Shown here in pieces: positions 7,260 through 62,739 of a DNA stretch of 64,000 nt; position 1 is the stretch's first letter, and every line of letters starts with the position of its first letter. The notes below the pieces were generated by a model that did no database searches, was not told the DNA's origin, and was given only the letters and a program-made list of their open reading frames with translations. The DNA comes from Burkholderiales bacterium. GTDB taxonomy: Bacteria; Pseudomonadota; Gammaproteobacteria; Burkholderiales; Burkholderiaceae_C. A program made the translations under genes and the position numbers. Where the stretch lies: contig JBBQAI010000005.1 of NCBI GenBank assembly GCA_038316205.1, positions 13,449 through 77,448 on the forward strand, given 5' to 3'.

Positions 7260-7391
7260 AGCACACCGCCGTGCAAGCCGCGATGCGTTGCGCGACAGGC
7301 TGCGCAACTTCAACTTCGTTTACCTGCCCTGCGGCCGAATTGCGCGGTCTTTTGCGATAAGGTCCCGCGCTTCGAATTCGCAGGATCGCCC

Positions 7392-41640: not shown

Positions 41641-42171
41641 TCAAGGCGCGCGGGTGGCGGGCGCCGGAACCAGCACTTTCTTGATGGTGGTGGGGCGCGT
41701 GTCAAAGACGGACGTTGCCGTCGGCAGCGTCGCGCAAGCGCCTTGGCCCGCCTTTACGGTGACGCCCGTTATGGTGGCAGCGCCGCTGGTGGAAACCAAC
41801 GCGAAGTTGCTGCTGGTGCCCTGCCGACAGACCATCCAGGAGTAGGCCGACGTGCCGTAGCTGTGAGTCAACAAGGCATTCGTGTCGTTGCCGGCAACCC
41901 AGGTGCCGACGTTGGACGTTGGGTCCGTCGCATGGCCGGGACCCTGCTTCCAATCGATCAAGGTGCCGCTGCCCGCCCCTTGGTGAAATTCCTGCCAGGT
42001 GTCGGCGTTGCTCGAGCTGGCGGCGCAGACGGTGTTGCCGTTGATCAAGGCCTGCAACGCAGCACCCGTGATGCGTGTGGTGCCGCCTGGACAAGCAATC
42101 TGGGCAGACGCATGACCAGCCACCAGACCGGTTGCGGCCACCAAAGCCAGGGTGCGGATTGCGTGATGCAT
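41641..42171 (-). CDS. Hypothetical secreted protein (4 Cys)
   Basis: RBS GAGAGG; Sec signal ending ASA|Q; WQEFHQG..LIDWKQGP..VGTW. Confidence 0.75.
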   Translation of the reverse strand: MHHAIRTLALVAATGLVAGHASAQIACPGGTTRITGAALQALINGNTVCAASSSNADTWQEFHQGAGSGTLIDWKQGPGHATDPTSNVGTWVAGNDTNALLTHSYGTSAYSWMVCRQGTSSNFALVSTSGAATITGVTVKAGQGACATLPTATSVFDTRPTTIKKVLVPAPATRAP

Positions 42172-42317: not shown

Positions 42318-43592
42318 TCAAACCAGCACTTCGGCACAGGCCGGGTGGCCCAGAAAACCGTGCGGGCTGGCGCTGGCGCCGTAAGCGCCCGACTGGTAGA
42401 CGACCACCAGGTCGCCTTCTTGCGCCACCGCCAGCGGCATGCGGTCGGCCAACAGGTCCAGCGGCGTGCACAGCGGGCCGACGACGCTGGCCACCTCGCG
42501 CGCCGTGTCGTTCATGCGGTTGGCGATGGCCACCGGGTGGTTGCGCCGCAGCACCTGGCCGAAGTTGCCCGAGGCCGACAGGTGGTGGTGCAGCCCGCCA
42601 TCGACGACCAGAAAAACCTGCCCGCGCGAGACCTTGCGGTCGATGACCCGGGCGACGTAAACACCGGCCTCGCCCACCAGATACCGGCCCAGTTCCAGCA
42701 CCAGCGCCGCCTGCGGCAAATCCTGGCGCGCACGTTCGACCAGGCTGGTCAGCACGGCCGCAACCGGCGCCAGGTCCAGCCGCGTTTCACCGGGGAAATA
42801 CGGGATGCCGAAGCCGCCGCCCAGGTTCAACGTCAGCACCGGCTGCGGCGCGTGTTCGGCCAGGCGCAGCGCCAACTCGAAGCTCAGCGTCTGCGCCTGC
42901 GCGATGGCAGCGGCGCGCAGGTTCTGTGAACCGGCGTAAAGGTGAAAACCTTCGAAGGCCAGGCCCAGTTGGCCGATGCGCGTCAGCAGCGCGGGCACGG
43001 CCTCGGCATCGACGCCGAAAGGCTTGGGGCCGCCGCCCATCTTCATGCCCGAACCCTTCAATTCGAAGTCGGTGTTGACGCGCACGGCCACGCGGGCCGG
43101 CAGGCCCAGCGCCTGCGAAGCCGCCGCCAGCACCGGCAGTTCGCGCGGCGATTCCACATTCACCAGCACACCGGCGCGCACCGCTGCTTGCAGTTCGGCG
43201 TCGCGCTTGCCCGGCCCGGCGAAGCTGATGTGGCGGGGCGCTGCGCCAGCGGCCAGCGCCACCTGCAGTTCACCGGCCGAGGCCACGTCAATGCCGTCCA
43301 CCAGTCCGGCCATCAGCTGGACGACGGCCGGCAGCGGGTTGGCTTTCATCGCGTAATGCAGCAACAGGCCGGCCGGGAGCGCGGCGCGCAGGTCGGCCAC
43401 GCGGGCCTGCATCAAGCGGCTGTCGTAGGCGTAAAAGGGCGTCTGGCCGACCTGCGCGGCCAGTGCGCTGACGGTGTGTCCGCCGACCACCAGTTCACCG
43501 TCGCGCACCGCGAACTGGTCCATCGCGGCGTGCACGGGTGCAGCGGGTGCAGCGGGTGCTGCGGGTGCTGCGGATACGGGCGACGGGTTCAT
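42318..43592 (-). CDS. PLP-dependent decarboxylase, exosortase A/PEP-CTERM system-associated (LysA-fold, group IV)
   Basis: HYAMKANP (PLP Lys), FHLYAGSQ, LGGGF, ELGRY, GPLCTPLD, GAYG; coupled to the AMP ligase. Confidence 0.88.
   Translation of the reverse strand: MNPSPVSAAPAAPAAPAAPVHAAMDQFAVRDGELVVGGHTVSALAAQVGQTPFYAYDSRLMQARVADLRAALPAGLLLHYAMKANPLPAVVQLMAGLVDGIDVASAGELQVALAAGAAPRHISFAGPGKRDAELQAAVRAGVLVNVESPRELPVLAAASQALGLPARVAVRVNTDFELKGSGMKMGGGPKPFGVDAEAVPALLTRIGQLGLAFEGFHLYAGSQNLRAAAIAQAQTLSFELALRLAEHAPQPVLTLNLGGGFGIPYFPGETRLDLAPVAAVLTSLVERARQDLPQAALVLELGRYLVGEAGVYVARVIDRKVSRGQVFLVVDGGLHHHLSASGNFGQVLRRNHPVAIANRMNDTAREVASVVGPLCTPLDLLADRMPLAVAQEGDLVVVYQSGAYGASASPHGFLGHPACAEVLV
43535..43570. 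repeat. In-frame 9-bp tandem array CGGGTGC(A/T)G x4 (AAP repeats at the decarboxylase N-terminus)
   Basis: Read directly. Confidence 0.85.
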
Positions 43593-45310
43593 CGCCAGTC
43601 GGCCACGATCTGGCGGCGGTCCAGCTTGCCGTTGGGGTTGCGCGGTAGCGCGGCGGCGGCCACCACGATGCCGGCCGGCACCATGTAGGCGGGCATCTGC
43701 AAACGGCAGACCGCCAGCAGCGCGGGCACGTCCAGCACTTCGGTGCCGGCCGGCGGCGTGGCCACCACCTGGATGGCCTGGCCCAGCGCGGCGTCGTCAA
43801 CACCGAAGGCCACACATTCGCCGACCAGGCCGCTGGCGTGCAGCACGGCTTCCACCTCGGTCGGGCTGACGCGGTAGCCCGAAGTCTTGATCATCTCGTC
43901 GCGCCGGCCGACGAAGTACAGAAAGCCGTCGGCGTCGCGGCGCACGGTGTCGCCCGAATAGACCGCGATCTCGGGCAGCTGCAAGCCCCCGCCGATCGCG
44001 GCCTCGCCACCCACCAGCCCAGCCTGCAAGGCGCGGTAGCGCAGGGCTGTCTTTTCGGCGTCGCCCCAGTAGCCCAAGCCAACCAGCGGCCCGCGGTGCA
44101 CCAGTTCACCCGGCTCGTTGTCGGCGCACAGGCTGCCGTCGTCGCGCAGCACCAGCACTTCGGCGTTGGGGATGGCACGGCCGATGGAATCGGGCCGGCG
44201 GTCGATTTCATCGGGCGGCAGATAAGTCGAGCGGAAAGCCTCGGTCAGGCCGTACATCAGGAAGGGCTGTGCACGCGGCACGCGGTGGCGGATGGCGGCC
44301 AGCGTTTCCAGCGGCATGCGCCCGCCGGTGGTGGCGAAATAACGCAGGTGTTCGCCGATGGCCGGCGGCCAGTCCAGCGCGGCCAGTTGCATGTAGAGCG
44401 GCGGCACCGCCGTCAGGCCGGTGACCCGTTCACGCTCCAGCGCCTGCAGCACGTCGCGCGGCACCAGGTGGTTCAGCAAGACCACGCGGGCACCGGCATG
44501 GAAGGCTGTCGTCAACTGGCTGAAGCCGGCGTCGAAGGACAGCGGCAGCACGGCCAGCAGGGTGTCGTCGGCCGCGTTGTCCAGGTACTGCGCCACGCTG
44601 GTGGCACCGACCACCAAATTGCGGTGGCTGAGCACCACGCCCTTGGGCGCGCCGCTGCTGCCCGAGGTGTAGAGGATGGCCGCCATGTCGCTGTCGATGA
44701 CGCGGTGGCCGGCGCACGGCGCGCTGGCCAGCAGCTCGGCCCAGTGCAGCATCGACAAGGTTGCTGGCAAGGCCGCCGACCACCGTCCGGACGCAGCCGG
44801 CCGCGCCGTCAGGACGAGACGGCGCAACGCCGGCAGCGCCGCCCACAGCCCTTCCAGCAAGGCCGCGCGCTCGGGCGTGCTCAGCAGCGCGCAGGCACCC
44901 GAGTCGCGCAGGATGTGCGCGACCTGGGCCGGTTTCAGCAAAGGGTTGATGGGGACGAAAACCGCGCCGGCCGCCGCCGCTGCGAAGCACAGCACCACGG
45001 TCTCGGGCCGCTTGTCCAGCCACACAGCCACGCGCTCGCCGCGCTGCACCCCCTGCTGCAGCAGGCCGGCGGCCACGGCTTGTATGGCGCAGGCCAAGGT
45101 CGCGTAGTCCAAAGTCTGCACCCCCGAAGTCAGTGCAGGCGCCAGCGGCGTGCGCTCGGCGGCCAACAGGATCAGGTCGGCCAACAAGCGCGGCTCGCGC
45201 GGTCGGGCTAGGGTCTGCGTCGGCAAGCGGTGGGTGGTGCTGTTGGGGTTTGGAGGCGCTGCAAAACCGGATTGTGGCGGCAGCCCTGGCACCCGTGCCG
45301 GCGGCGTCAA
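43589..45310 (-). CDS. Acyl-CoA ligase (AMP-forming), exosortase A system-associated; start uncertain
   Basis: YTSGSSGAPKG, LPLSFDAG, MYGLTEAFRS, SGD, KTSGYRVSPTEVE, NGKLDR. Confidence 0.88.
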   Translation of the reverse strand: MTPPARVPGLPPQSGFAAPPNPNSTTHRLPTQTLARPREPRLLADLILLAAERTPLAPALTSGVQTLDYATLACAIQAVAAGLLQQGVQRGERVAVWLDKRPETVVLCFAAAAAGAVFVPINPLLKPAQVAHILRDSGACALLSTPERAALLEGLWAALPALRRLVLTARPAASGRWSAALPATLSMLHWAELLASAPCAGHRVIDSDMAAILYTSGSSGAPKGVVLSHRNLVVGATSVAQYLDNAADDTLLAVLPLSFDAGFSQLTTAFHAGARVVLLNHLVPRDVLQALERERVTGLTAVPPLYMQLAALDWPPAIGEHLRYFATTGGRMPLETLAAIRHRVPRAQPFLMYGLTEAFRSTYLPPDEIDRRPDSIGRAIPNAEVLVLRDDGSLCADNEPGELVHRGPLVGLGYWGDAEKTALRYRALQAGLVGGEAAIGGGLQLPEIAVYSGDTVRRDADGFLYFVGRRDEMIKTSGYRVSPTEVEAVLHASGLVGECVAFGVDDAALGQAIQVVATPPAGTEVLDVPALLAVCRLQMPAYMVPAGIVVAAAALPRNPNGKLDRRQIVADWR

Positions 45311-45329
45311 ACCGGGCGCCGAGCAGTGC

Positions 45330-45345
45330 CGTGAACCAAGTCACG
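45330..45345. promoter_or_regulatory. CRP/FNR-family-like palindrome CGTGA-N6-TCACG in the ligase/ACP divergent region
   Basis: CGTGA ACCAAG TCACG; a TATACT -10-like box lies at 45408-45413. Confidence 0.55.
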
Positions 45346-45434
45346 GGGGTCGGCCCGGCACCGGCGCCGCAGGCCGCGCCACCCCCGGTTGCGCCAGATG
45401 TGCAACCTATACTGACCGTTAGCCTGAAAGGGGC

Positions 45435-45692
45435 ATGGCGGTGGATGTTCTGCCTCACGTGATACAGGTATTGGACGAAGTGTTGGCCCTGGGTGGCCGG
45501 GGCTTGGCGTTCACGCGGCTGACGCCTTTGCTGGGCGCTGTGCCCGAGCTCGATTCGATGGCGGTCGTGGCCTTGATCACCACGCTGGAAGAGCGCCTGG
45601 GCATCGAATTGCCCGACGACGAAATCGACGCGCAGGCCTTCGCCACCGTCGGTGCGCTGGCCGACTTCGTCAGCGCCCACAGCGGCACCTGA
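45435..45692 (+). CDS. Acyl carrier protein
   Basis: 85 aa, acidic, ELDSMAVV phosphopantetheine Ser motif, LEERLGI, F.TVG.L. Confidence 0.92.
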   Translation: MAVDVLPHVIQVLDEVLALGGRGLAFTRLTPLLGAVPELDSMAVVALITTLEERLGIELPDDEIDAQAFATVGALADFVSAHSGT

Positions 45693-45699
45693 AGCGCAC

Positions 45700-46575
45700 G
45701 TGGCTCTGGCGACCCTAGCCTTCATGCTGCCCGCCGGGGCCGGCAGCGACGAGCACCTGATGGCCTTGTGGCACGCCCCGGCGTCTACCACCGAAATGCG
45801 CGGCGTGGTGCTCTACGTCCACCCCTTCGCCGAAGAGATGAACAAGACGCGCCGCATGGCCGCGCTGCAGGCGCGCGCGCTGGCGGCCGCAGGCTACGGC
45901 GTGCTGCAGATCGACCTCAAGGGCTGTGGCGACAGCAGCGGCGAATTCGGTGACGCCAGCTGGGCCGATTGGGTCTCGAACGTGCACACTGCCGTGCGCT
46001 GGTTGGGCGCCAAGAGCCCCGCGCCGCTGACCCTGTGGGGCTTGCGCGCCGGCTGCCTGGTGTTGGCTGACGCGGCCGCGCAAATGCCCGACGAGACCTG
46101 CAGTTTCGTGTTCTGGCAGCCCACGCCCCAAGGTGCCCCGGTGCTGCGCCAGCTGCTGCGCACTGCTGCGGCGGCGGCCTTTTTGGACGGTGGCGGCAAG
46201 GGCGTGGTGGACGGCCTGCGCAAACGCCTGGCCGCCGGGCAGGCCATCGAGGTGGGCGGTTACCGCGTCCACCCCGCGCTGGCCGCCGGGCTGGAACAGG
46301 CACGCTTGCCGGTGCCGGCGCGCCTGAACCGCCTGGTCTGGCTGGAAGTCAGCGCGGTGGCCGGGCCCGCAGCCAGCCACCCGCCACTGACGCCGGCCAG
46401 CATCAGCGCGTCGGCACCGTGGCGCCAGGCAGCCGCCAGCTTCGAGGTGCGCTTGATCCCTGGCCCACCCTTCTGGCAGACCGCCGAGATCGAAACCGCG
46501 TCGGCCTTGATCGAGGCCACGCTGGCAGCAATGCAGCCGGCTGTCGCTGAGCCTGCGTCCGGCCTTTTGGTATGA
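45700..46575 (+). CDS. Alpha/beta hydrolase 'hydrolase 2', exosortase A system-associated
   Basis: HPFAEEMNKTRRM, DLKGCGDSSG, WGLRAG, GPPFWQT. Confidence 0.85.
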   Translation: MALATLAFMLPAGAGSDEHLMALWHAPASTTEMRGVVLYVHPFAEEMNKTRRMAALQARALAAAGYGVLQIDLKGCGDSSGEFGDASWADWVSNVHTAVRWLGAKSPAPLTLWGLRAGCLVLADAAAQMPDETCSFVFWQPTPQGAPVLRQLLRTAAAAAFLDGGGKGVVDGLRKRLAAGQAIEVGGYRVHPALAAGLEQARLPVPARLNRLVWLEVSAVAGPAASHPPLTPASISASAPWRQAAASFEVRLIPGPPFWQTAEIETASALIEATLAAMQPAVAEPASGLLV

Positions 46576-47483
46576 CGATGGTCCAGCCTGTCGCCCAACC
46601 TGTCATCGACACCCCGCTGGTCTTCGCCCTGGACGACGACACGCTGGTCGGCGTGCTATCAGCACCTGCAGGCGCCGCGCACCCCACCGCGATGCTGGTC
46701 GTGGTCGGCGGCCCGCAGGTGCGCACCGGCAGCCACCGCCACTTCGTGCAACTGGCCCGCCACCTGGCCGCGCAGGGCCATGCCGTGTTGCGCTTCGATG
46801 TGCGCGGCATGGGCGACAGCAGCGGCACGCCGGCCGGCTTCGAACAGTTGCACGACGACATCGCCGCCGCTGTCGGCGAACTGCAGCGCCAGCGCCCCGA
46901 GGTGCAGCGCGTGGTGCTGTGGGGCTTGTGCGACGGTGCCTCGGCGGCTCTGCTTTATCTGCAGCAGACCCACGACCCGCGCATCAGCGGCCTGGTGCTG
47001 CTGAACCCCTGGGTGCGCACGCCCGAAACCCTGGCCCGCGCCACGTTGCGCCACTACTACGTGCAGCGCCTGATGCAGCCCGGCTTCTGGCGCAAGCTGG
47101 TCGGTGGCAGCGTGGGCCTGGGCGCCGTGCGCGGCTGGTGGCTCAACTTCCAGACCGCCCGACAGCAGGTGCGCCGTTCACGTGGCGCCGAGAGCGTGCA
47201 TTTTGCTGCGCGCATGGCCGAGGGCTGGCGCGGTTTTCACGGTCCCATCTTGCTGCTGCTGTCGGGCGACGACGTCACCGCCCACGAATTCGCCGGCCAC
47301 GCCGGCAGCGACAGCCACTGGCGCGGCGCACTGGCCATGCCGCACGTACGGCGCATCGACTTGCCCACCGCCGACCACACCTTTTCCGACGCCGAAACCG
47401 GGCCACAGGTGCTGGCGCTGACGCTGGACTGGCTGCGCAGCATCAGCAGCGGTACAGGCACCGGCAGCGCCACCCTGCGGTGA
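46572..47483 (+). CDS. Alpha/beta hydrolase 'hydrolase 1', exosortase A system-associated
   Basis: VVVGGPQVRTGSHR, RFDVRGMGDS, WGLCDGAS, LLNPWVR, ADHTFS. Confidence 0.87.
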   Translation: MTMVQPVAQPVIDTPLVFALDDDTLVGVLSAPAGAAHPTAMLVVVGGPQVRTGSHRHFVQLARHLAAQGHAVLRFDVRGMGDSSGTPAGFEQLHDDIAAAVGELQRQRPEVQRVVLWGLCDGASAALLYLQQTHDPRISGLVLLNPWVRTPETLARATLRHYYVQRLMQPGFWRKLVGGSVGLGAVRGWWLNFQTARQQVRRSRGAESVHFAARMAEGWRGFHGPILLLLSGDDVTAHEFAGHAGSDSHWRGALAMPHVRRIDLPTADHTFSDAETGPQVLALTLDWLRSISSGTGTGSATLR

Positions 47484-48664
47484 GCCTGGCGCTGAAGACC
47501 ATGGCCACGGCCACTCACGAGCGGCGAGATGGGCCGGGCAGCCACACCGGCACGGCTCAGACGTGCGGCGATTTCACGGCCCTGCCCAACGATGTGCGCG
47601 CGCTGCTGGACGCCGCCGGCGCCACCGACTTCCAAAGCAGCACGGCCTGGTGGACCCACTTCGTGCAGACCGTCGATGTCGGCGCCGCCCTGCCGCAGTT
47701 GCGCATCTGGCGTGCGGGTCAGCATGACGGTGGGCTTGACGCCGGACCTGTGCTGGCGGTGTTGCCAGTGCTGCTGTACCAGCAAGGCGGGCGGGTCACG
47801 GCCCTGGGCAACTACTACACCACGCGCTACGCGCCGGTGCTGGCCGACGGCTTGAGCACCGAGCAGGCCACCGCCGCCCTGCAAGGCCTGCTGGCCGCCT
47901 TGCTGCGCGACGCGCCGCACCTGCACACCCTGCGCTTCGAACCACTGGAAGCCGGCTCGCTGGCCGAGACCGCACTGCGCCGCGCGCTGCAAAACCAGGG
48001 CTGCGCGGTGTTCGGTTTCCACGCCTTCCAGAACTGGTTGTTGCCCGTCACCAGCGGCTGGCCAGCCTACCTGGCCGCGCGTGACGGCCAGCTGCGCACG
48101 ACGCTGGCCCGCATGGGCAAACGCTTTGCGGCACGCGGTGGCCGGCTGGAACTGGTGCAAGGCGAGACCGAGCGCATGGACGCCGCCATCCAGGCCTACG
48201 AAACCGTCTACGCCGCCAGTTGGAAAGACCCCGAGCCGCACCCGCGCTTCATGCCCGGTTTGATCCGCGCCGCCGCGCACAGCGGCGTGCTGCGCCTGGG
48301 CATCGCATGGCTGGGTGATATGCCGGTCGCGGCCCAGGTGTGGATGGTGGCCGGCGGCCGCGCCGACATCTACAAACTGGCCCACGACGAAGGCCACAAA
48401 GAGACATCGCCCGGCAGCCTGTTGACGGCCATGTTGATGCAGCACGCCTTCGAGCAAGACCGTGTGACGGTGGTGGACTACCTCAGCGGCGACGACGGCT
48501 ACAAGCGCCTGTGGATGAGCGAAGTGCGCGAGCGCACGGGTCTGGTCGCCTACCGCTTGCGCACGCCGCGCGGCCTGCTGGGTGCAGCGCGCGCGGTGGC
48601 CGGTGTTTGGCTGCGCGCCTTGCGGGGCAAGCCGGCAACGCCATCGCCATCGCCATCGCCATGA
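47480..48664 (+). CDS. GNAT-family acyltransferase (CelD/BcsL, Acetyltransf_6-like); alternative start ATG 47501
   Basis: LGNYYT, SWKDPEP, YKLAHDE, SPGSLL, DYLSGDDGYKRLW. Confidence 0.82.
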   Translation: MSLALKTMATATHERRDGPGSHTGTAQTCGDFTALPNDVRALLDAAGATDFQSSTAWWTHFVQTVDVGAALPQLRIWRAGQHDGGLDAGPVLAVLPVLLYQQGGRVTALGNYYTTRYAPVLADGLSTEQATAALQGLLAALLRDAPHLHTLRFEPLEAGSLAETALRRALQNQGCAVFGFHAFQNWLLPVTSGWPAYLAARDGQLRTTLARMGKRFAARGGRLELVQGETERMDAAIQAYETVYAASWKDPEPHPRFMPGLIRAAAHSGVLRLGIAWLGDMPVAAQVWMVAGGRADIYKLAHDEGHKETSPGSLLTAMLMQHAFEQDRVTVVDYLSGDDGYKRLWMSEVRERTGLVAYRLRTPRGLLGAARAVAGVWLRALRGKPATPSPSPSP

Positions 48665-49611
48665 CGACCGTCAGCGTCGTCATCCCCGGCTACAACTGCG
48701 CGGCCTACATCGGGCAGACGCTGGCCAGCGTGCTGGCCCAGCCGGTTGACGGCCTGGAAGTGCTGCTGGTGGACGACGGCTCCACCGACGACACCGTGGC
48801 CATCGCCATCGCCTGCGCGCAAGGCTTGAACGACCCGCGCCTGCGCGTCATCCAGCTGGCCAACGGCGGTGTCTGCAAGGCGCGCAACCGCGGCATCGCC
48901 GAGGCGCGCGGCAGCTACATCTGCCTGCTCGACCACGACGACTGGTGGTACCCGCACAAGCTGCCGCGCCAGCTGGAAGAGATGGCCCGCCACCCCGAGG
49001 CCGGGGTTGTCTTCAGCACCTTCGAGCGATGGTTTCCGAACGCCACGGACGGCCGCTTTCCAGCCCCCGAGTCCGTCGATGTCAGCGCCACGCCCGACGA
49101 CATCGACCCCGACTTTTCGGGCTGGATCCACCACCAGTTCCTGCTGGACTGCTGGATGCTGACCAGCACCTCGATGTTCAGGCGCGAGGTCTTCGAGCGT
49201 TGCGGCACCTTCGACGAAAGCCTGCCTTTTAGCGAAGACTGGGACCTGTGGCTGCGCGTGGCGCGCGAATTTCAATTCATTCAATTGCGCCGCCCGACCA
49301 CGCTCTACCGCATGCACGCCAGCCAGGGCAGCGGCTACCACCGGCCGGTGGATTACCGCACCCGGCTGCTGGAACGCACGGCCGCCGAACACGGCTTATC
49401 CAGCCGCGACGGGCGCACCATCACGCGGCAGCAGTTCAACCACCAACTGGCGCGCTACCACGCCGATTTCGCCCGCGGCGAATTGCACGCAGGGCGCCGC
49501 CGCAGCGCGCTGGCGGGCTACAGCCGCGCCTGGCGCTTGCACCCGCTGCGCTGGAAGTACCCGGTGTACCTGGCGGCGGTGCTGGGTGGCTGGCAGGGGC
49601 GCGAGCTGTGA
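48661..49611 (+). CDS. Glycosyltransferase family 2
   Basis: VSVVIPGYN, VDDGSTD, ARNRG, LDHDD, EDWDLWLR. Confidence 0.93.
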   Translation: MTTVSVVIPGYNCAAYIGQTLASVLAQPVDGLEVLLVDDGSTDDTVAIAIACAQGLNDPRLRVIQLANGGVCKARNRGIAEARGSYICLLDHDDWWYPHKLPRQLEEMARHPEAGVVFSTFERWFPNATDGRFPAPESVDVSATPDDIDPDFSGWIHHQFLLDCWMLTSTSMFRREVFERCGTFDESLPFSEDWDLWLRVAREFQFIQLRRPTTLYRMHASQGSGYHRPVDYRTRLLERTAAEHGLSSRDGRTITRQQFNHQLARYHADFARGELHAGRRRSALAGYSRAWRLHPLRWKYPVYLAAVLGGWQGREL

Positions 49612-50738
49612 ACCACACGACTGCACCGGCTCTGCCAGCGTCATCGCCGTCGGGCATGAAACCCGAGTTGTCGCTGTACCTGGACGTGGTGCGCTTTTTC
49701 GCCGCGCTGGTCGTCTTCGTCTCGCACTTCGCGCTGCACAGGCTGAGCGGCGGCTTTCTGTGGCAACTCAATCCCTACGGGTACGAAGCGGTGACCGTGT
49801 TCTTCGTGCTGTCGGGCTTTGTCATCGCCTACGCCACCAGCACGCGTGAGCGCGACGCCGCCACCTATGCCATCAGCCGTGCCGCGCGCATCTATTCGGT
49901 GGCCGTGCCGGCGCTGCTGTTGACCGTGGTACTCGACGCCATCGGCAGCCGGCTTCAACCGGAGCTGTACAGCGCGGGCTGGGGCTATGTGCCGGACCAC
50001 ACGCTGTGGCGCTTCTTCGCGGGCCTGAGCTTTTGCAACGAGCTGTGGGCCTTGAACGTGGTGCAAGGCTCCAACGCGGCCTACTGGTCGATGGGCTATG
50101 AAGTGCCCTACTACGTGATCTTCGGCCTGGCCTTGTACGCGCCGGCGCGCTGGCGTGTGGCCGCGGTGGCGCTGGCGCTGCTGGTGGCGGGGCCGGCCAT
50201 CGTGCTCTTGCTGCCGATCTGGTTGATGGGTGTCGCCGCCTACCGCTACACCCAACGCCATGTTCTGTCGGTGCAACGCGGCCGGCAGCTGTTTTTCGGA
50301 TCGCTGGCGGTCTGGCTGCTGTACGAAGTGGCCGTGCTGCACTGGGGCCGACCCGACTTGCCCGTCAACGCGGTGTTCAAGCGCCACCAGGTGCTGCAGG
50401 ACTATGTCATCGGCATCTGCTTCACTGCCAACATCGTCGGCTTCAACGCGGCGGCACCGGCATTGGGCGCGATGTTGCTGCGGCACGCCACGGCTATACG
50501 CTGGGTGGCCGGCGCCACCTTCACGCTGTACCTGTGCCACTTTTCTATCGCCCAGTTTCTGCTGGCCTGCATGCCCTGGCCCGCCGAAGACGCACGCAGC
50601 CGGGTGCTGGTTTTCAGCGGCACCTTGCTGGCCGTTTTCGCGCTGGCCGCCGTGACCGAGCGTCGCAAGAGACTCTGGCGCGGTTGGTTCGAAGACATGC
50701 ACGGTGCCGTCTTCAAACGCCCGAGTTCCACCAGCTAA
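49608..50738 (+). CDS. Acyltransferase family 3 (OafA-like O-acyltransferase); alternative start ATG 49656
   Basis: LDVVRFFAALVVFVSH, FFVLSGFVI, RAARIY, YWSMGYE, TFTLYLCH. Confidence 0.9.
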   Translation: MNHTTAPALPASSPSGMKPELSLYLDVVRFFAALVVFVSHFALHRLSGGFLWQLNPYGYEAVTVFFVLSGFVIAYATSTRERDAATYAISRAARIYSVAVPALLLTVVLDAIGSRLQPELYSAGWGYVPDHTLWRFFAGLSFCNELWALNVVQGSNAAYWSMGYEVPYYVIFGLALYAPARWRVAAVALALLVAGPAIVLLLPIWLMGVAAYRYTQRHVLSVQRGRQLFFGSLAVWLLYEVAVLHWGRPDLPVNAVFKRHQVLQDYVIGICFTANIVGFNAAAPALGAMLLRHATAIRWVAGATFTLYLCHFSIAQFLLACMPWPAEDARSRVLVFSGTLLAVFALAAVTERRKRLWRGWFEDMHGAVFKRPSSTS

Positions 50739-52148: not shown

Positions 52149-53238
52149 ATGCAAGAAATCAAGAGCCTGACCTCTTTGCGCGGCATCGCCGCGATGGCCG
52201 TGGTGCTGCAGCATTTTTCGGTCACGGCGCAACGGCTGTGCGACAGCACCATCCCTTCGCTGGTGCCGCATGGCTACATGGCCGTCGACTTCTTCTTCGT
52301 GCTCAGCGGCTACATCATGTGCTACACGTATTTGCAGGCCTTTCAGCAGCAAGGCTGGCAGGCCTACAAGCCGTTTTTGCAAAAGCGCGCCATCCGCTTG
52401 TTGCCGCTGCAGATTTTTTGTGGTGACGGTGGTGCTGCTGCTGGCCTGGGCCAGCACGCGCTGGGCGGGCCACAACCTGTTCTTCGCGGCTGACCGCACG
52501 GCAGCCGATGTGCTGGCGAACTATTTGATGCTGCAAGGCATCATCACCGGCACCAACATCAACGGCCCTTCATGGTCGGTGAGCGTTGAATTCGTCGCCT
52601 ACTTCAGCTTTCCACTGCTGATCCACGGGGCCTTCAGCAAGCGGCGCTGGGTCACGGGCGCCACCGCAGCCGTCGCGCTGGCGGGCCTGCTGGCGCTGGC
52701 GCTGACCCAGCCGCGCCTTGGCCTGGGCACCGAGATACCGCCCGACGGCTTGATCCGCTGCATGACCGAATTCACGCTGGGCATGCTGAGCTTTCGGGCC
52801 TTGCAACACCCGGGCTTTGCCGCCTGGATAGCGCGCGACCGCATCACGGCAGCGGTGCTGTTGCTGTGCCCCGTGCTGGCGCTGCTTCGCATCGACCTGC
52901 TGACCGCCTTGAGCTTCCCGTTGGTGGTGGCCGCCGCCGCCAGCAACAGGGGCCGCGCCACGGCCTGGCTCCAGCACCCCGCCCTGCACCTGCTGGGCGT
53001 GATCTCGTACTCGCTGTACCTGATCCACTACCTGTTCTGCATCGGCCTGCCTGTGCCGCTGCAGTACTGGCACCCGGCCCCATTGACGGCCCCGCAAGCC
53101 ATGCTGGCGGCGTTGCTCGGCACACTGATCGTGTTGCCCTTTGCCTGGCTGACTTACCGGGGTGTCGAGCTGCCCGCTCGCGCCTGGCTGCTGCGGCGTT
53201 TGCACGCGCAGCAAGCCGCGCGAGCGGCGGCGGTGTGA
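52149..53238 (+). pseudogene. Acyltransferase family 3, split by a 1-nt frameshift in a T6 run at 52414-52419
   Basis: 5' frame: SLTSLRGIAA..H, VDFFFVLSGY, KRAIRLLP. 3' frame: NGPSWSVSVE, LGVISYSLYLIH. Removing one T joins them as QIFVVTVVLL. Confidence 0.85.
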
Positions 53239-53261: not shown

Positions 53262-54737
53262 TCAGCGAACCAGATAGGCCAGCACAAAGACCAAGGCCAT
53301 CGCCAGCACCGTGAGCCGGCTGCCGCGGTCGCGCAGCGCAAAGACGATGGGGTCGTCGTGCATCTCGCCACGGCCGGTTTTGATCCACAAACGGCCGAAC
53401 CAGTAAAACAGGCCCACCGCCACCAGCCACAACAGTTGCGGATGGGCAAACCGCGCGGCCGTCTCGGGCGTGGCCACGTACAGGCCGAAGACCACGATGG
53501 CGCAGATGCTGGCCGCAGCGCCAAAAGGCCACAGCACCACCAGATCGGCCACGCGGTAGTCGCGCCCGCGTGCGGCTTCCGCGCCGGTCTGCCGCAGGCT
53601 CACCAATTCGGCACAACGCTTGACCAGGGCCAGGCTGAAGAAGGTGAAGATGCTGAAGGCCAGCAACCACGGCGACACCAGGATGGCGGTGGCCACGGCC
53701 CCGGCCAGCACACGGTAGGTGTAAAGCAAGGCCAGCATCAGCACGTCGATTAACACATAGCTTTTCAGCCACCAGCTGTAGGCCGTGGTCAGCAGCACAT
53801 AACCCGCCAGCATGCCCACAGCAGGCCAGGAAACGGCAGCCGTCACGGCCAGCCCGGCAGCAATCAGCAGGCCCGCAGCCACCACGCCGTGCAGCACGCC
53901 GATGCGCCCGCTGGCGAAGGCCCGTTCGCGTTTGCGCGGGTGCAGGCGGTCGCTTTCCAGATCCCACAGGTCGTTCATCACATAGGTGCCTGAGGCCGCC
54001 AATGAAAAACCGATGAAAGTCAAAGTGGCGGCCAGCAGCTTGTCGCCCTGCGTGAAAGCGAATGCGGTGAACAGGGGGACGAAGAGCAGCAAATTCTTGA
54101 TCCACTGGTGGGCGCGTATGGCCTTCAGCCACAGGCGCCAGCCGGCCGCGTTGCTGCGTGTGAATTCGGCCTCGATCGGCACCTGGGCCGACACCTGTGT
54201 GCGCAAGCTCGGTGACACGCCGGCGATGACGGCCGCTGCGCTGGCACGCCAGATCGGCAGGTCGGCCGCGCAGTCGCCAGCGTAGACGAAACGCGGGCCG
54301 ACGGCCGCCTGGATGGCGGCCAACTTGTTGGCACCCTTGAGATTGCGCTGGCCGTCAGTCGCCAGCACCAGATCAAACAGTTGCAGATGCACCGCCACGG
54401 CGTCGGCAATGCTGCGCGGGGCAGCAGTAGCCAGCACCACCTCGCGGCCAGCTGCGCGCTGCGCGCGGGCCCAATCGACCAGGTCTTGCCGCCAGGGCAG
54501 CGTGGCCACGTTCAAGCTCACCCGCTCGGCGGTGCGCCGCTTCAAAACCAAGGCCCCTTGCAGCGCCCAGAACAGCACGCGAAAAATGTTCAGCGGGTTG
54601 CGTTTGAGCAGCACCAGCACCGATTCAAATAGCGTGTCGGTGAACGTCAAGGTGCCGTCAAGGTCCAGCACCAACGGGGGCAATGGCTGAGCCTGTTCAG
54701 ACCGCTGGGCGGACATTTCACTCGTCGGGCTGTTCAT
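53262..54737 (-). CDS. HAD-like phosphatase + UbiA prenyltransferase fusion (polyprenyl-phosphate phosphoribosyltransferase-like)
   Basis: DLDGTL and GDCAAD HAD motifs; RAHQWIKN, NDLWDLESDRLHPRKRER, KRCAEL, MHDDP. Confidence 0.88.
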   Translation of the reverse strand: MNSPTSEMSAQRSEQAQPLPPLVLDLDGTLTFTDTLFESVLVLLKRNPLNIFRVLFWALQGALVLKRRTAERVSLNVATLPWRQDLVDWARAQRAAGREVVLATAAPRSIADAVAVHLQLFDLVLATDGQRNLKGANKLAAIQAAVGPRFVYAGDCAADLPIWRASAAAVIAGVSPSLRTQVSAQVPIEAEFTRSNAAGWRLWLKAIRAHQWIKNLLLFVPLFTAFAFTQGDKLLAATLTFIGFSLAASGTYVMNDLWDLESDRLHPRKRERAFASGRIGVLHGVVAAGLLIAAGLAVTAAVSWPAVGMLAGYVLLTTAYSWWLKSYVLIDVLMLALLYTYRVLAGAVATAILVSPWLLAFSIFTFFSLALVKRCAELVSLRQTGAEAARGRDYRVADLVVLWPFGAAASICAIVVFGLYVATPETAARFAHPQLLWLVAVGLFYWFGRLWIKTGRGEMHDDPIVFALRDRGSRLTVLAMALVFVLAYLVR

Positions 54738-54788: not shown

Positions 54789-55889
54789 TCAATTCGCATG
54801 GCCAGCCGGCGCACGTCTGCGAGCAAGCAGGCCGGCAACGGCGCGTTTCAGGACTGGCGCGAATTTTTTCTCGACACCTGCGTGCACCACCCAGGCCGCC
54901 AGAATCATCAGCGCCAGCACGCCCCAAAACAGTACATGGGGGCTGAGGGCGGGGTAACCCGCATTGAAAATCATGTAGCCGATGTTCTGGTGCAGCAAAT
55001 ACAGCGGGTAAGTCAATGCGCCCAGCAACTGCCAATCCCGACGGCCCAGGAACCCACTGCGCCGGAAACTGACCAGCAGCATGAGCCCAAAGAAAGCCGT
55101 GACCATGGCAAGCGCCACCGAAACATCCACAGCAGCGCCGTAATGGCGGGCCACGCCGGTTGCACGGCCCACCGATTGGTGCAGCGCCAGCAGCAGTGAA
55201 CCCGCCAGCAGCGCCCAGCGCTGCAAGCTAGGCCCCTGCGCATGCAGTGCATAACAAGTGGCGCCGGCAATGAAGTAGGCCGAATAGTCAGCAATCAAGA
55301 GCGAACTGACTCGCCACAAACCCGGCACCGGTGCCGGCAGCAACGCAGGCAAGAATTCCAGCGCAGCCGATAGCAGCAGCCACAACGCCAGCCAACGTTG
55401 CATTTGCTGGATTTTGCCAAGCAACAAAACGATCAGCACCAGGGCGTAGAACTTCAGTTCGACCACCAGCGACCAATAGACGCCGTCCACATGCTCCACG
55501 TTGAAAAAATCCTGCAGCATGGTCAGGTTGACCAAGTACTGGCCCAGGCCAACTTCAAAACGCGGTGCACCGATGGCCAGCGTGAGCAGAAACGTCAGCG
55601 TGCAGCAGGCCCAATACGCCGGATACAGCCTGACGATGCGTGACGTCAAAAAAGCCCGCCAGTCGCCATTCGAGGCCGTCATTGAAATGACGAAACCACT
55701 GATCATGAAGAACAGGTCAACACCCAGGTAGCCGTAACGGGCAATTGGCGCCAGCGCCGGGTAGGGCATGCTGGACATGTTGTTGGCCGCGTGGCCGCGA
55801 AACGCGTAATGGAACAGCACCACCATCAAGGCGGCGCTGAACCTCAGCAGGTCTATCTCATGGACTCTGGCGTTTCTGTAGGAAGCCAT
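54789..55889 (-). CDS. Acyltransferase family 3 (OafA-like)
   Basis: IDLLRFSAALMVVLFH, GVDLFFMISGFVI, RIVRLYPAY, YWSLVVELKFY, TYPLYLLH. Confidence 0.92.
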   Translation of the reverse strand: MASYRNARVHEIDLLRFSAALMVVLFHYAFRGHAANNMSSMPYPALAPIARYGYLGVDLFFMISGFVISMTASNGDWRAFLTSRIVRLYPAYWACCTLTFLLTLAIGAPRFEVGLGQYLVNLTMLQDFFNVEHVDGVYWSLVVELKFYALVLIVLLLGKIQQMQRWLALWLLLSAALEFLPALLPAPVPGLWRVSSLLIADYSAYFIAGATCYALHAQGPSLQRWALLAGSLLLALHQSVGRATGVARHYGAAVDVSVALAMVTAFFGLMLLVSFRRSGFLGRRDWQLLGALTYPLYLLHQNIGYMIFNAGYPALSPHVLFWGVLALMILAAWVVHAGVEKKFAPVLKRAVAGLLARRRAPAGHAN

Positions 55890-56191
55890 GCGGGCGTGGC
55901 GGACGACACAAGTCGGGTCGCAGCTAGTTTTGCACAGCCCGGTAGGCAGACCCCAGACACCGACGGTGAACAAGTCACGCCAGCCGTGCGCCTGGCGCCA
56001 ATTGCTCTGGCCTGCAACGGGCTGACACAACTGACGCAGACGGACGCAGGTATGCGCCTTAAGCGCCAACAAACTCAGCCGAAGAAACCATTTGCCGTTG
56101 AACGCGCGGCACCACCTCGGCATCACCGCACTACGGCTTCGACCTGCCTGCGGTCATGCGTGAAACACACTCTCGAACAGGCCCAGCATCC

Positions 56192-59850: not shown

Positions 59851-61830
59851 TCAACGTGCTTTCCCATCCGGCAGCAGTTCAGTGGTAACGCCATTGCGTA
59901 TCAAGGCCGAGCGGATCATGCGTGGACGGCCTTTCACCTCGGCCATGATTTTGGCCACGTATTCGCCCACCAGCCCGACCGCGAACAGATTGGCCGAACC
60001 AAACATCAGAATCAGTATCTGCAATGTCGTGGCGCCTTGGGCGGCGATGTCCGGGTAAATCAGTTTCAGCAACACTGTCACCACAGCCAGCACCGCCGAA
60101 AGTGCCAAAGCCACTATGCCTGCCGTCGTCAACATCGTCAGTGGCGTGTCACTGAACGAGAAGATGCCTTTCTTCGCCCACTCGATGTTCTTCAACAGGT
60201 TGTTCGTCGACACGCCAAACATGCGCTCAGGACGGATGTAATCCACCCCGGTCTGCTTGAAACCCACATAGGCACGCAGGCCGCGCACGAACAAGTCGCG
60301 TTCGGGGCAGTTCAGCAACCAACCCACCACGCGCCTGTCCATCAGTGAGAAGTCGCCCGCGTCGTGCGGGATCTTGATGTAGCTGAAGCGCGCAAAGATT
60401 CGGTAGAAAAGTTTGTACATCAGCCCCCACATGAAGGGCATCTCACGTTTGATGCGGCGGCCGTAGACGACGTCCCAGCCGGCCTCCCACTGCGCGTAGA
60501 ACTGCTCGATCAATTCAGGCGGGTCTTGCAGGTCTCCGTCGAGCAAAACCACGCTGTCTTTGGTACACAACTCCATGCCGCTGCGAAACGCCATCTGCGA
60601 GCCGAAATTGCGCGAATGGGTGATACCCAACACATGCGAATCGCGTTCGCTGATGTCGCGTATCACCTTAGCACTGTCGTCAGGGCTGCAGTCGTTGACG
60701 AAGATGATTTCGTAGTCAATGTCCAGCTTGCGGAAGGTGGCCGTCAATCGCTGGTGCATCACCGGTATGGCTTGACCGTCTTTGTAGCAGGCAATGATGG
60801 CTGTGACGCTGCGCTTGCGGGCGTTCGGGTCGCGCTTGGTGGCGGCGGCGTGTTCCGCATCGGTCAGCGTGCGCACCCATTCGGCCGTGCGGCGCAGACC
60901 CTCTTCGAGGGTGACTTCGGCCTTCCAGCCCAGCTTTTCGTGGGCCTTGCGAGGGTCAGAATACCAATCGGCCAAATCCCAGGCGCGACCCTCCATGGTG
61001 CCGAACTTGGGTTCGGCGCTGACATCAAAAATACGCCTCGTCGTTTCGGCCAGTTCGGCGATGGTGGTGCGATGGCCTGTGCCGATATTGAAGCTGTCAC
61101 CGTAAATGGCCGGCTGCATGGCCGTGGCGGATTTGACGAAGGCGGCAATGGTGTCGTCGATGTGGATGAAATCGCGTGAGGTGCGCGGGTCAACGAAGGG
61201 CGGCAGTTCGCCGGCAATGGCCTTGCGCAGCAGCGTCGGGATCAGCCGCGAGGTGTCTTCATACGGACCGTACACCGCATACAGCCGCAGATTGGCGCAG
61301 GGGAATCCGTGCTGCTGGCCCATGAAGCGCAGATAGCTGGCAACGGCCACCTTGCTGACGGCGTAATGGCTGTTCGGTTCGCAAACGGCGGCTTCAGCCG
61401 GCGCGCTGCAGTTGGTGCCGTATTCGGACGAACTGCCGGCGTGTATGAAGGCCGCGAAGGGTTGGTCTTGCAACAGGCCAACCAAGTTCACAATGGACTG
61501 AAAATTCGTCTGGTAGATCAGCCCGCCGTCTTTCTCGAAGGAATAGGCGCCATAGGCTGCGCAGTCGAAGACGGTCTGCGGGTGCAGGCCGTTGACCATG
61601 TTCTTGGTGGCCGAAAAATCGGTCAGATCAACCGCAACTAGCTGCTCGTCCTTGACGTCGTCCAGGCGCCAGTTCTTGCCGCGGCGCACGGCGGCGTACA
61701 CGTCGCTGCGCACGCGCGCAATGGCGTGGAACAGGTTGGCGCCGATGAACCCTGATGCGCCGGTTACCAAGATGGGGCCGCGCAGGGCGCGGATGTGGTT
61801 GTCAAGGTCCGACATGCGTTGAGGATCCAT
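59851..61830 (-). CDS. Fusion of NAD-dependent epimerase/dehydratase (extended SDR) and GtrB/ArnC-like polyprenyl-phosphate glycosyltransferase (GT2)
   Basis: TGASGFIG, SSSEYG, YAVSK; then VNDCSPD, SRNFGSQMA, LDGDLQDPP, DAGDF, two C-terminal TMs and GEYVAKI. Confidence 0.9.
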   Translation of the reverse strand: MDPQRMSDLDNHIRALRGPILVTGASGFIGANLFHAIARVRSDVYAAVRRGKNWRLDDVKDEQLVAVDLTDFSATKNMVNGLHPQTVFDCAAYGAYSFEKDGGLIYQTNFQSIVNLVGLLQDQPFAAFIHAGSSSEYGTNCSAPAEAAVCEPNSHYAVSKVAVASYLRFMGQQHGFPCANLRLYAVYGPYEDTSRLIPTLLRKAIAGELPPFVDPRTSRDFIHIDDTIAAFVKSATAMQPAIYGDSFNIGTGHRTTIAELAETTRRIFDVSAEPKFGTMEGRAWDLADWYSDPRKAHEKLGWKAEVTLEEGLRRTAEWVRTLTDAEHAAATKRDPNARKRSVTAIIACYKDGQAIPVMHQRLTATFRKLDIDYEIIFVNDCSPDDSAKVIRDISERDSHVLGITHSRNFGSQMAFRSGMELCTKDSVVLLDGDLQDPPELIEQFYAQWEAGWDVVYGRRIKREMPFMWGLMYKLFYRIFARFSYIKIPHDAGDFSLMDRRVVGWLLNCPERDLFVRGLRAYVGFKQTGVDYIRPERMFGVSTNNLLKNIEWAKKGIFSFSDTPLTMLTTAGIVALALSAVLAVVTVLLKLIYPDIAAQGATTLQILILMFGSANLFAVGLVGEYVAKIMAEVKGRPRMIRSALIRNGVTTELLPDGKAR

Positions 61831-62739
61831 TCAGGCGCCGGCCAGTGCGGCCAACATGCTGGCCGGGTCCAGCCCCGACTGCTGACGCAGAAAAACCTGC
61901 GAGCCATAGCGCTCGTAGTGGTGGGCTCGGGCATACAAGTGAACGAAACGTGGCACGCTGATGCCTTGGTCGGCCAACCACAGGGCCAGCTCAGAACCCA
62001 CACCGCCGCGCCGCACATGCTCTTCAGCCACGCACAGCGCGCGCCCGGCGCCGATCTGCGCCAGCAATGCAGCCGGCATGGGGTTCAGGTCCAGCGATAA
62101 TTCAGCCAGGGCCCAAAGGCAAGGGCGTTGAGCAGGGACCAGTGCCTGGAACGCTTCGATGTAGCTGCCCGCCAGCGCGCCGACGGCAATGACCACCGGC
62201 CCATCACCATGGGTCAGTTGGCGCCAGGGTGCATAGACGGGAACGGTGTAGCCCTTGGGCTTTTCACCACGACCCAGGCGCAGATAAGCAGCACGGTTTG
62301 AATCGCCAGCGCGCGGCACCACAGCGCCCAGGTCTTCATCAAATACTGGCGCGTAAACAGCCATATTCGGCAAGCACAGCAGAACGCCGTAATCCTCAAT
62401 CGCGTGGTGCGTGGGGCCCATCACGCCGTAGCCATAGCCGCCACCGTTACCCACCAACTTGACGGGCAGCTTGTGGAAGGTGACGTCGTTACGGATCTGC
62501 TCGAAGGGCCGCGCATAGCAAAACGGCGCGATGCTGTAGGCCCAGACTTCGAAGCCCTGGCGCGCCATGCCGGCGGCCACCGAAATCATGTTTTGCTCGG
62601 AAACACCGGCATTGATGAAGCGCGGGCCCATGGCAGCCTGCAGCGGCTCCAGCGCCATGAAGCCCAGGTCACCCGTCAGGAACATCATGTTTGGGACGGT
62701 GGCCCGCGCCAGCATGGCGTCGCAAAACTGGATTCTCAT
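61831..62739 (-). CDS. Split transketolase, C-terminal (pyrimidine-binding + C-terminal) subunit
   Basis: TGDLG, GVSEQNM, RPFEQIRND, GPTHHAIED, YLRL, EEHVRRGG. Confidence 0.92.
   Translation of the reverse strand: MRIQFCDAMLARATVPNMMFLTGDLGFMALEPLQAAMGPRFINAGVSEQNMISVAAGMARQGFEVWAYSIAPFCYARPFEQIRNDVTFHKLPVKLVGNGGGYGYGVMGPTHHAIEDYGVLLCLPNMAVYAPVFDEDLGAVVPRAGDSNRAAYLRLGRGEKPKGYTVPVYAPWRQLTHGDGPVVIAVGALAGSYIEAFQALVPAQRPCLWALAELSLDLNPMPAALLAQIGAGRALCVAEEHVRRGGVGSELALWLADQGISVPRFVHLYARAHHYERYGSQVFLRQQSGLDPASMLAALAGA

Follow-up and report, generated by a model that had tools for sequence, protein, structure and literature searches.

A cassette of genes tied to exosortase A (XrtA) lies in the second half of the DNA analysed here, a Burkholderiales sequence of 64,000 nucleotides (assembly GCA_038316205.1, contig JBBQAI010000005.1, positions 13,449 to 77,448 of the forward strand) that is referred to below as the window. 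The core of the cassette encodes an adenylating ligase, a small carrier protein, a decarboxylase dependent on pyridoxal phosphate (PLP), and two alpha/beta hydrolases, and the four enzymes belong to exosortase A-associated families that have been catalogued for many years without an assigned chemistry. Their likely joint function is the subject of this report.

Gene content and layout of the locus

The locus consists of two divergent operons, with the ligase and decarboxylase genes on the minus strand and the genes for the carrier, hydrolase 2, hydrolase 1, a GNAT, a GT2 glycosyltransferase, and an Acyl_transf_3 (AT3) membrane protein on the plus strand (Table 1). The inventory was drawn from a listing of open reading frames (ORFs) and from profile scans, and the junctions were read directly in the sequence. 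An initial annotation of this DNA had described the same arrangement, and all the genes that it listed are present at or next to the places it assigned to them, the AT3 gene lying just beyond its right-hand end at position 49611. The divergent operons and the ATGA and GTGA overlaps that it reported are likewise real: five junctions were read, and four-base overlaps of the ATGA type join ligase to decarboxylase, hydrolase 2 to hydrolase 1, and GNAT to GT2, with those of the GTGA type joining hydrolase 1 to GNAT and GT2 to AT3. Proteins of the locus match all four models TIGR03098 to TIGR03101 above their curated cut-offs, which bears out the assignment of the ligase, the decarboxylase, and both hydrolases to exosortase A-associated families. 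The start of the ligase gene is uncertain, with candidates at 45310, 45292, 45226, and 45187, and the true start probably lies between 45187 and 45310.

Table 1. Features of the cassette and its immediate surroundings (window coordinates)
Feature	Position	Strand	Family match and remarks
VanZ-domain membrane protein, 1119 aa	38158-41517	-	PF04892 VanZ, N-terminal; no other Pfam match
Predicted BtrK-type PLP decarboxylase	42318-43592	-	TIGR03099, 608 bits (cut-off 478)
Predicted VinN/AfcQ-type adenylating (ANL) ligase	43589-45310	-	TIGR03098, 722 bits (cut-off 592)
Divergent intergenic spacer, 124 nt, between the two operons	45311-45434	.	
Stand-alone carrier protein	45435-45692	+	PF00550 PP-binding
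Hydrolase 2	45700-46575 (longest ORF from 45652)	+	TIGR03101, 261 bits (cut-off 203)
Hydrolase 1	46572-47483	+	TIGR03100, 309 bits (cut-off 168)
GNAT	47480-48664	+	Acetyltransf_6 (PF13480), E 4e-21
GT2 glycosyltransferase	48661-49611	+	PF00535, E 2e-35
AT3 membrane acyltransferase	49608-50738	+	Acyl_transf_3 (PF01757), E 4e-16; GTGA start, or ATG at 49656

The ligase and its carrier protein

Matches of the full-length ligase in the PDB are adenylation domains of non-ribosomal peptide synthetases (NRPS), VinN, and beta-aminoacyl-acyl carrier protein synthetases. For the pocket region (residues 205-420), the best PDB match is VinN (3wv4) at 112 bits, followed by the next protein at 96 bits, with LgrA at 74 bits and DltA at 62 bits. 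Three motifs are kept in 20 of 20 orthologues: A4, which reads SFD(A/Y)G and contains an Asp; LMYGLTEAFRSTYL; and NGKxDR, in which the A10 lysine stands. The first two read SFDAG and LMYGLTEAFRS in the present protein. The ligase thus retains both the amino-binding Asp of A4 and a pocket Arg, each of them invariant in the 20 orthologues. The invariant Arg of LMYGLTEAFRSTYL aligns with VinN chain position 347, which we read as Arg331, allowing for a 16-residue tag. AfcQ, a VinN-type enzyme, activates L-Asp, inferably at the side-chain carboxylate, and modelling and docking suggest that its Arg311, equivalent to VinN Arg331, binds the alpha-carboxylate, which would position the side-chain carboxylate for activation; the role of VinN Arg331 is taken from the same paper (PMC12186527).

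We assign the ligase, from its sequence, to the amino acid adenylating enzymes of the VinN/AfcQ type. A fatty-acid or CoA ligase was considered and rejected, in view of the amino-acid-type adenylation motifs, including the A4 Asp, and of the VinN-like pocket. The claim of the initial annotation that the ligase loads an amino acid on the dedicated carrier is supported by this homology. The carrier itself has an (E/A)(L/F)DS(M/L) motif, kept in 15 of 15 orthologues, and its Ser41, within ELDSMAV, is the predicted phosphopantetheine serine.

Two precedents show what such a pair can do together with a PLP enzyme. AfcQ, AfcK, and AfcP were reconstituted in vitro in 2025, the PLP enzyme AfcP converting Asp-S-AfcK into beta-Ala-S-AfcK (PMC12186527), and in the VinN/VinL/VinO system, which handles 3-methylaspartate, thioesterification must precede decarboxylation (PMC11284099).

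The decarboxylase

When compared with all PDB sequences, the decarboxylase finds its best matches in BtrK (7ru7 and 2j66, 267 bits), annotated as L-glutamyl-[BtrI acyl-carrier protein] decarboxylase, the best LysA reaching 168 bits. The alignment with BtrK is full length (residues 42-423), the PLP lysine is kept in YAMKAN, and the motifs VDGGxHHH, SGAYGxSxSPxxFLGHP, and KMGGxP are common to the two proteins and not found in the aligned LysA. With the lysA model TIGR01048 the protein scores 248-249 bits, under the cut-off of 298, and a separate LysA of 514 bits is encoded on contig C191 of the same genome. The possibility of an ordinary LysA, raised in the initial annotation, is excluded by the score below cut-off, by the roughly 100 bits by which the protein stands closer to BtrK, and by the separate LysA elsewhere in the genome.

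By sequence, then, the decarboxylase is classed as a BtrK-type enzyme, not a LysA, and it is predicted to act on a carrier-bound amino acid, as BtrK does in decarboxylating Glu thioesterified to a carrier of 87 aa (PMC7857480). The earlier suggestion that this enzyme tailors the carrier-bound substrate is thereby supported by homology.

The two hydrolases and the GNAT

In hydrolase 1, the W117-G-L-C-D121 elbow, Asp234, and His269 are invariant in 28 of 28 sequences, as they were in an earlier alignment of 12 orthologues. HMMER alignment with PDB entries 9pjb and 8b4u places Cys120 at the catalytic Ser of GLSMGG and DHTFS at GDHTFS. Because a Cys occupies the nucleophile position within an invariant triad, the enzyme is suited to taking an acyl group from a thioester onto cysteine, and this is how PhaC, CmaE, and SyrC work. 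Hydrolase 1 is best described as an alpha/beta hydrolase with a predicted Cys120-Asp234-His269 triad, and it would serve as an acyl-S-enzyme transferase or a thioesterase.

Hydrolase 2 presents a different picture. An Arg (codon 46045-46047) aligns with the catalytic Ser of the GLSMGG and HSLGG elbows of PDB entries 7wwh and 5cml and is invariant in 28 of 28 sequences, and no conserved His is found in them. In an AlphaFold2 model with a predicted local distance difference test (pLDDT) score of 91, this Arg falls between strand 110-115 and helix 117-127, that is, at the nucleophile elbow of a fold that matches ordinary esterases. Because Arg replaces the nucleophile and a conserved His is lacking, hydrolase 2 cannot be a classical hydrolase and is likely a non-catalytic partner. 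A catalytic Ser-His-Asp hydrolase is rejected for both proteins, since hydrolase 1 has Cys and hydrolase 2 has Arg at the elbow.

The sole Pfam match of the GNAT is Acetyltransf_6, which some sources call the CelD/BcsL family. No Fem model of Pfam matched it and neither did any NCBIfam model, so that it is not a member of TIGR03019, the FemAB-like family that we take to be part of the XrtA gene set. An AlphaFold2 model built from 60 homologues (pLDDT 93) was compared with PDB folds by Foldseek, and the best structural neighbours are aminoacyl transferases throughout, with E values of 1e-13 to 1e-10: FemX of Weissella (E 1e-13), staphylococcal FemX and FemA, domains of MprF/aminoacyl-phosphatidylglycerol synthases, and Sba18 and Sbb17, which are aminoacyl-tRNA-dependent peptide synthases. 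The protein, judged from this model, is better termed a Fem-type tandem-GNAT transferase than an acetyltransferase. In seven of 17 family loci a homologue with 40-45% identity is encoded no more than 10 kb from the cassette, often abutting hydrolase 1, with one further weak match (about 45% of loci); homologues also occur at loci L043, L048, L056, and L058. A fusion link between GNAT and hydrolase 1 was considered and rejected, since two longer GNAT homologues (637 and 689 aa) have no significant similarity to hydrolase 1.

The initial annotation had assigned the transfer step to the hydrolase pair and/or the GNAT. This is plausible for hydrolase 1, with its Cys nucleophile, and for the GNAT, with its Fem-like fold, but hydrolase 2, with Arg at the nucleophile position, is likely a non-catalytic partner.

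Distribution and link with exosortase A

The initial annotation had proposed a search of the rest of the genome for xrtA and PEP-CTERM proteins. XrtA is indeed encoded there (345 bits, cut-off 208). Its gene is on contig C47 of this draft assembly, which is not the contig of the cassette, and the genome also has at least 32 PEP-CTERM matches above cut-off.

The association was then quantified in 61 genomes of the window's own family, one per genus. XrtA is found above cut-off in 17 of the 18 genomes that carry the cassette and in none of the 43 that do not (Fisher p 3e-14, uncorrected for shared ancestry). All 17 XrtA genomes carry the cassette, and the only carrier without XrtA is a 62%-complete genome. 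In the 12 family cases where both are on the same contig, 21-41 kb separate XrtA from the cassette.

A wider sample at the level of the class yielded TIGR03099 above cut-off in 43 of 400 genomes; this tally takes in three unpublished genomes (G141, G296, and G308), which are used in no other result. Twenty class loci were fetched and combined with 18 family loci (17 primary loci and a second, partial locus of G403), giving 38 in all. In 37 of these, the genes for ligase and decarboxylase are direct neighbours, the exception being class locus L055, where tblastn finds no ligase. The divergent layout seen here recurs in 16 of the 17 primary family loci, and the block of carrier, hydrolase 2, and hydrolase 1 is found within 10 kb in 11 of the 20 class loci. 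XrtA is present above cut-off in 17 of the 20 class genomes, and hydrolase 1 in exactly those 17; the other three (G068, G385, and G186) have neither XrtA nor hydrolase 1, yet they have kept the decarboxylase and the carrier, with a detectable ligase in two of them.

At canonical loci such as L050, the cassette is surrounded by exopolysaccharide (EPS) genes. They encode a TIGR03097 O-ligase-like protein, a TIGR03087-like glycosyltransferase (below cut-off), and GT4 enzymes, together with a DegT aminotransferase, an AsnB-like amidotransferase, a polysaccharide deacetylase, a Wzx-type protein, and members of the Acetyltransf_6 and VanZ families.

Some genomes of the family have additional copies. 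G403 and G452 each have two TIGR03099 genes above cut-off, on different contigs, and G452 also has two XrtA genes; G429 has one TIGR03099 gene above cut-off and a second just below it (409 bits). The second G403 locus (L077) contains the ligase and decarboxylase, with no carrier or hydrolase pair nearby.

Proposed pathway

Taken together, the genes present, their homologies and conserved residues, and their co-distribution with XrtA suggest that the cassette encodes a pathway in which a short acyl group with a free terminal amine is built on a carrier protein, as part of the XrtA surface-polymer system, a reading to which we give a probability of about 0.6. As the homology and the pocket residues suggest, the ligase would adenylate L-Asp at the side-chain carboxylate and load it onto Ser41 of the carrier. 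The BtrK-type enzyme would then remove the free alpha-carboxylate on the carrier, most likely yielding beta-alanyl-S-carrier. Glu or a close analogue is a less likely substrate for the ligase than Asp; with Glu, the product would be GABA-S-carrier (GABA, gamma-aminobutyric acid), and this is the main alternative because the only solved relative of the decarboxylase is a Glu enzyme.

Hydrolase 1, with its invariant Cys-Asp-His triad, would accept the aminoacyl group in thioester linkage to Cys120 and hand it to an acceptor. Its partner, hydrolase 2, would probably take no part in catalysis and serve to bind the carrier or the acceptor. The nature of that acceptor is the weakest step of the scheme: it would most likely be a sugar of the XrtA-associated EPS or glycan, in keeping with the sugar or glycan suggested in the initial annotation. 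The Fem-type GNAT might carry out a related aminoacyl transfer or extend the new free amine.

Several points weigh against this scheme. Literature searches found no functional or biochemical study of any TIGR03098-03101 member. The substrate is ambiguous, as the nearest solved decarboxylase acts on gamma-linked Glu and the nearest ligase is of the Asp type, and at ligase pocket position 236 most orthologues have Tyr, whereas the present protein and a minority of them have Ala. A Cys-His-Asp alpha/beta hydrolase could simply cleave the thioester and free the amino acid. The ligase, carrier, and decarboxylase occur without XrtA in some genomes, and therefore they are not intrinsically an exosortase device, and the co-occurrence counts ignore shared ancestry. 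Finally, the Fem-like GNAT is present in under half of the related loci, and neither the GT2 nor the AT3 is a conserved companion of the cassette: AT3 has no homologue in the 38 related loci, and the GT2, although translationally coupled to the GNAT here, gives weak, generic matches at other loci (27-33%). The GT2 and AT3, which the initial annotation had listed in the plus-strand operon, are thus local neighbours only, and the GNAT, at about 45% of family loci, cannot be regarded as a constant member either.

Alternative explanations

A bolder proposal is that the cassette builds the handle on which exosortase A acts, namely an amine-ended beta-alanyl or oligo-beta-alanyl group on EPS or lipid, with XrtA resolving the PEP-CTERM acyl-enzyme on that amine. 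The Cys enzyme and its Arg-bearing partner would place the group and the Fem-like GNAT might extend it, and the result would correspond, in Gram-negative bacteria, to the pentaglycine bridge that FemXAB build for sortase. The near-perfect co-occurrence of cassette and XrtA in the family sample, as well as the presence of hydrolase 1 only where there is XrtA, fit this idea, but we consider it unlikely.

A slightly less probable explanation is that the cassette stands in for the aspartate 1-decarboxylase PanD as a source of beta-Ala for pantothenate and CoA: beta-alanyl-S-carrier would be made by the trio of ligase, carrier, and decarboxylase, and hydrolase 1, as a thioesterase, would free beta-Ala from it. 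PanD (TIGR00223) was not found in the source genome, which is 85% complete, or in the complete genomes G316 and G149 of the same family, and it is present in two of the 18 family carriers and 18 of the 43 non-carriers (odds ratio 0.17, uncorrected Fisher p 0.03). The trio without XrtA in three of the 20 class genomes would also suit such a role. However, 25 of the 43 non-carriers have neither PanD nor the cassette, and therefore the family has another source of beta-Ala; PanD also occurs in seven of the 20 class-level carriers; and because the cassette tracks XrtA almost perfectly in the family, the PanD pattern is inseparable from membership of that clade. Moreover, a vitamin precursor needs no pseudo-hydrolase partner, Fem-like transferase, or placement in an EPS locus, and the route costs ATP for each beta-Ala. 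PanD replacement in the family is accordingly judged a minor and weak rival. As a separate observation, among 60 genera sampled in the family, about two thirds gave no PanD match.

It is improbable, again by a small step, that the locus makes a diffusible small molecule, such as an oligo-beta-Ala lipopeptide, an N-acyl amine, or a signal, and that it merely sits beside EPS genes with no modification of a polymer. All the characterised relatives (AfcQ/K/P, VinN/L/O, and BtrI/J/K) feed secondary metabolites, AfcQ iterates to give (beta-Ala)n (PMC12186527), and PMC11631085 cites Craig et al. 2011 for a link of N-acyl amino acid synthases to PEP-CTERM/exosortase loci. Yet no polyketide synthase (PKS), NRPS, KAS III, fatty acyl-AMP ligase, or tailoring oxidoreductase is found among the ORFs scanned here or at L050; the genes around the cassette encode glycosyltransferases, a flippase-type protein, an O-ligase-like protein, and a deacetylase; and the co-occurrence with XrtA is strict.

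A strictly Dlt-like system, in which an unmodified amino acid (e.g., D-Ala) would be loaded, taken through the membrane, and attached to a surface polymer as an ester, with the decarboxylase making the precursor from free substrate, has in its favour the DltA/DltC logic of an ANL ligase with a small carrier, a weak DltC match of that carrier (26 bits), DltA structures among the PDB matches of the ligase (62 bits), and a membrane acyltransferase, AT3, next in the operon, but it is very improbable, as the carrier is far under the DltC cut-off of 68 bits, the ligase scores 112 bits with VinN, the locus ORFs scanned include no MBOAT or DltD family, AT3 is absent from the 38 related loci, and the adjacency of ligase and decarboxylase in 37 of 38 loci, together with the likeness to BtrK, argues for action on a carrier-bound substrate.

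Surroundings of the cassette

Upstream, the first 38 kb of the window hold housekeeping genes (mpl, accC, fba, pyk, pgk, fmt, dprA, and secDF) that are unrelated to the cassette, and from 38 kb to its end the window is a glycan-related island. The housekeeping part also includes an ORF of 980 aa (7260-10202, plus strand) whose codon bias is coding-like and which no NCBIfam model matches at E 1e-8.

No Rfam family was found between 38 and 52 kb, the spacer between the two operons included. A sigma-54 promoter in this spacer was rejected, as it has no sigma-54-like site at up to two mismatches. Across the window there are 38 such matches, fewer than the 52 given by chance.

Next to the decarboxylase operon lies the 1119-aa VanZ-domain protein, which may act on the acceptor side. 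It is a recurrent neighbour: its homologues adjoin the decarboxylase at loci L042, L060, L067, and L071 and are nearby at L046, four family loci have a homologue next to the decarboxylase, and separate VanZ proteins flank the cassette at L050 and L054. Between the VanZ protein and the decarboxylase there is an ORF of 176 aa (41641-42171, minus strand) with no Pfam family, of which a 51% identical homologue occupies the same position in L067 (10787-11146).

Beyond the cassette, three Acyl_transf_3 genes occur within 7 kb (49608-50738, 52270-53238, and 54789-56126); the middle gene covers no more of the profile than its C-terminal two thirds and is possibly truncated. A HAD-UbiA fusion protein is encoded at 53262-54737 on the minus strand; in L073 and L075, homologues with 59-60% identity occur at a distance of about 8 kb from the cassette, and the fusion may be a recurrent neighbour of the cassette in part of the family. 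Further downstream, a single ORF (59851-61830, minus strand) fuses an NAD-dependent epimerase/dehydratase domain to a GT2 domain and is adjoined by a transketolase-like gene (61831-62778).

Significance

What exosortase attaches PEP-CTERM substrates to is the main gap in the sorting pathway, and it would be filled if the product of the cassette proved to be the exosortase acceptor. If the aminoacyl group is a substituent of EPS, it would add a free amine, hence a positive charge, to the polymer, which might affect floc or biofilm behaviour. An Afc/Vin-type reading would bring carrier chemistry of the antibiotic type into the surface-polymer biology of common environmental and floc-forming proteobacteria, and it gives predictions that are cheap to test: Asp or Glu on a named carrier serine, a loss of 44 Da, and an acyl-enzyme at Cys120.

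Comparison with known systems

Among systems of known chemistry, the closest are AfcQ/K/P, VinN/L/O, and BtrI/J/K, not Dlt. BtrK of the BtrI/BtrJ/BtrK system (butirosin, Bacillus circulans) is the closest solved homologue of the decarboxylase, and the product of that system decorates a sugar, the aminoglycoside. In the Btr system, however, an ATP-grasp ligase, BtrJ, performs the loading in place of an ANL enzyme. Gamma-linked Glu is its substrate, and transfer by BtrH involves gamma-glutamyl protection and deprotection.

AfcQ/AfcK/AfcP, which belong to the AFC-BC11 lipopeptide pathway of Burkholderia (PMC12186527), share with the present cassette a VinN-type adenylating enzyme with a pocket Arg, a small stand-alone carrier, and a PLP decarboxylase; the likeness to AfcQ and AfcP is drawn from the published description. 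The Afc genes form a lipopeptide cluster in which release is by a KAS III-like Cys enzyme, AfcL, and acylation by a fatty acyl-AMP ligase, whereas the output here would be through a Cys alpha/beta hydrolase and its Arg-substituted paralogue in an XrtA/EPS setting. VinN/VinL/VinO (vicenistatin) and FlvN/L/O (fluvirucin) are alike in that VinN is the best match of the ligase pocket and that thioesterification on a stand-alone carrier comes before PLP-dependent decarboxylation (PMC11284099). The Vin system differs in its later steps, with VinM as an Ala-adding ligase, VinK as an acyltransferase, a PKS, and VinJ as an amidohydrolase for deprotection, and it is found in actinomycete macrolactam hosts. 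The ORFs scanned in the window and at L050 include none of VinK, VinM, VinJ, BtrH, BtrG, AfcL, and AfcA, and no PKS, NRPS, or aminoglycoside genes; the predicted output genes are those of hydrolase 1, hydrolase 2, and the Fem-like GNAT.

For the output steps, the precedents are of another kind. CmaE and SyrC have an alpha/beta-hydrolase fold with an active-site Cys that shuttles an aminoacyl group from a carrier thioester to another acceptor, and the same chemistry is proposed for hydrolase 1 by analogy only. FemX/FemA/FemB and the MprF-type transferases have the same tandem-GNAT fold as the GNAT of the operon, although the sequence identity to it is only 12-16%.

Teichoic acid D-alanylation by DltA and DltC is similar to the present system in that an ANL ligase charges a dedicated small carrier for the decoration of a surface polymer, and this ligase-plus-carrier logic is the part of the Dlt-like proposal in the initial annotation that stands. 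Dlt involves no decarboxylation, however, and needs DltB (an MBOAT protein) and DltD; DltC and DltA are only distant matches here, and Afc, Vin, and Btr are closer precedents. Overall, the cassette is a real copy of a widespread, catalogued, and uncharacterised gene set tied to XrtA. Its predicted chemistry, on-carrier decarboxylation, is known from these systems, and the output module and the exosortase/surface-polymer context set it apart from them.

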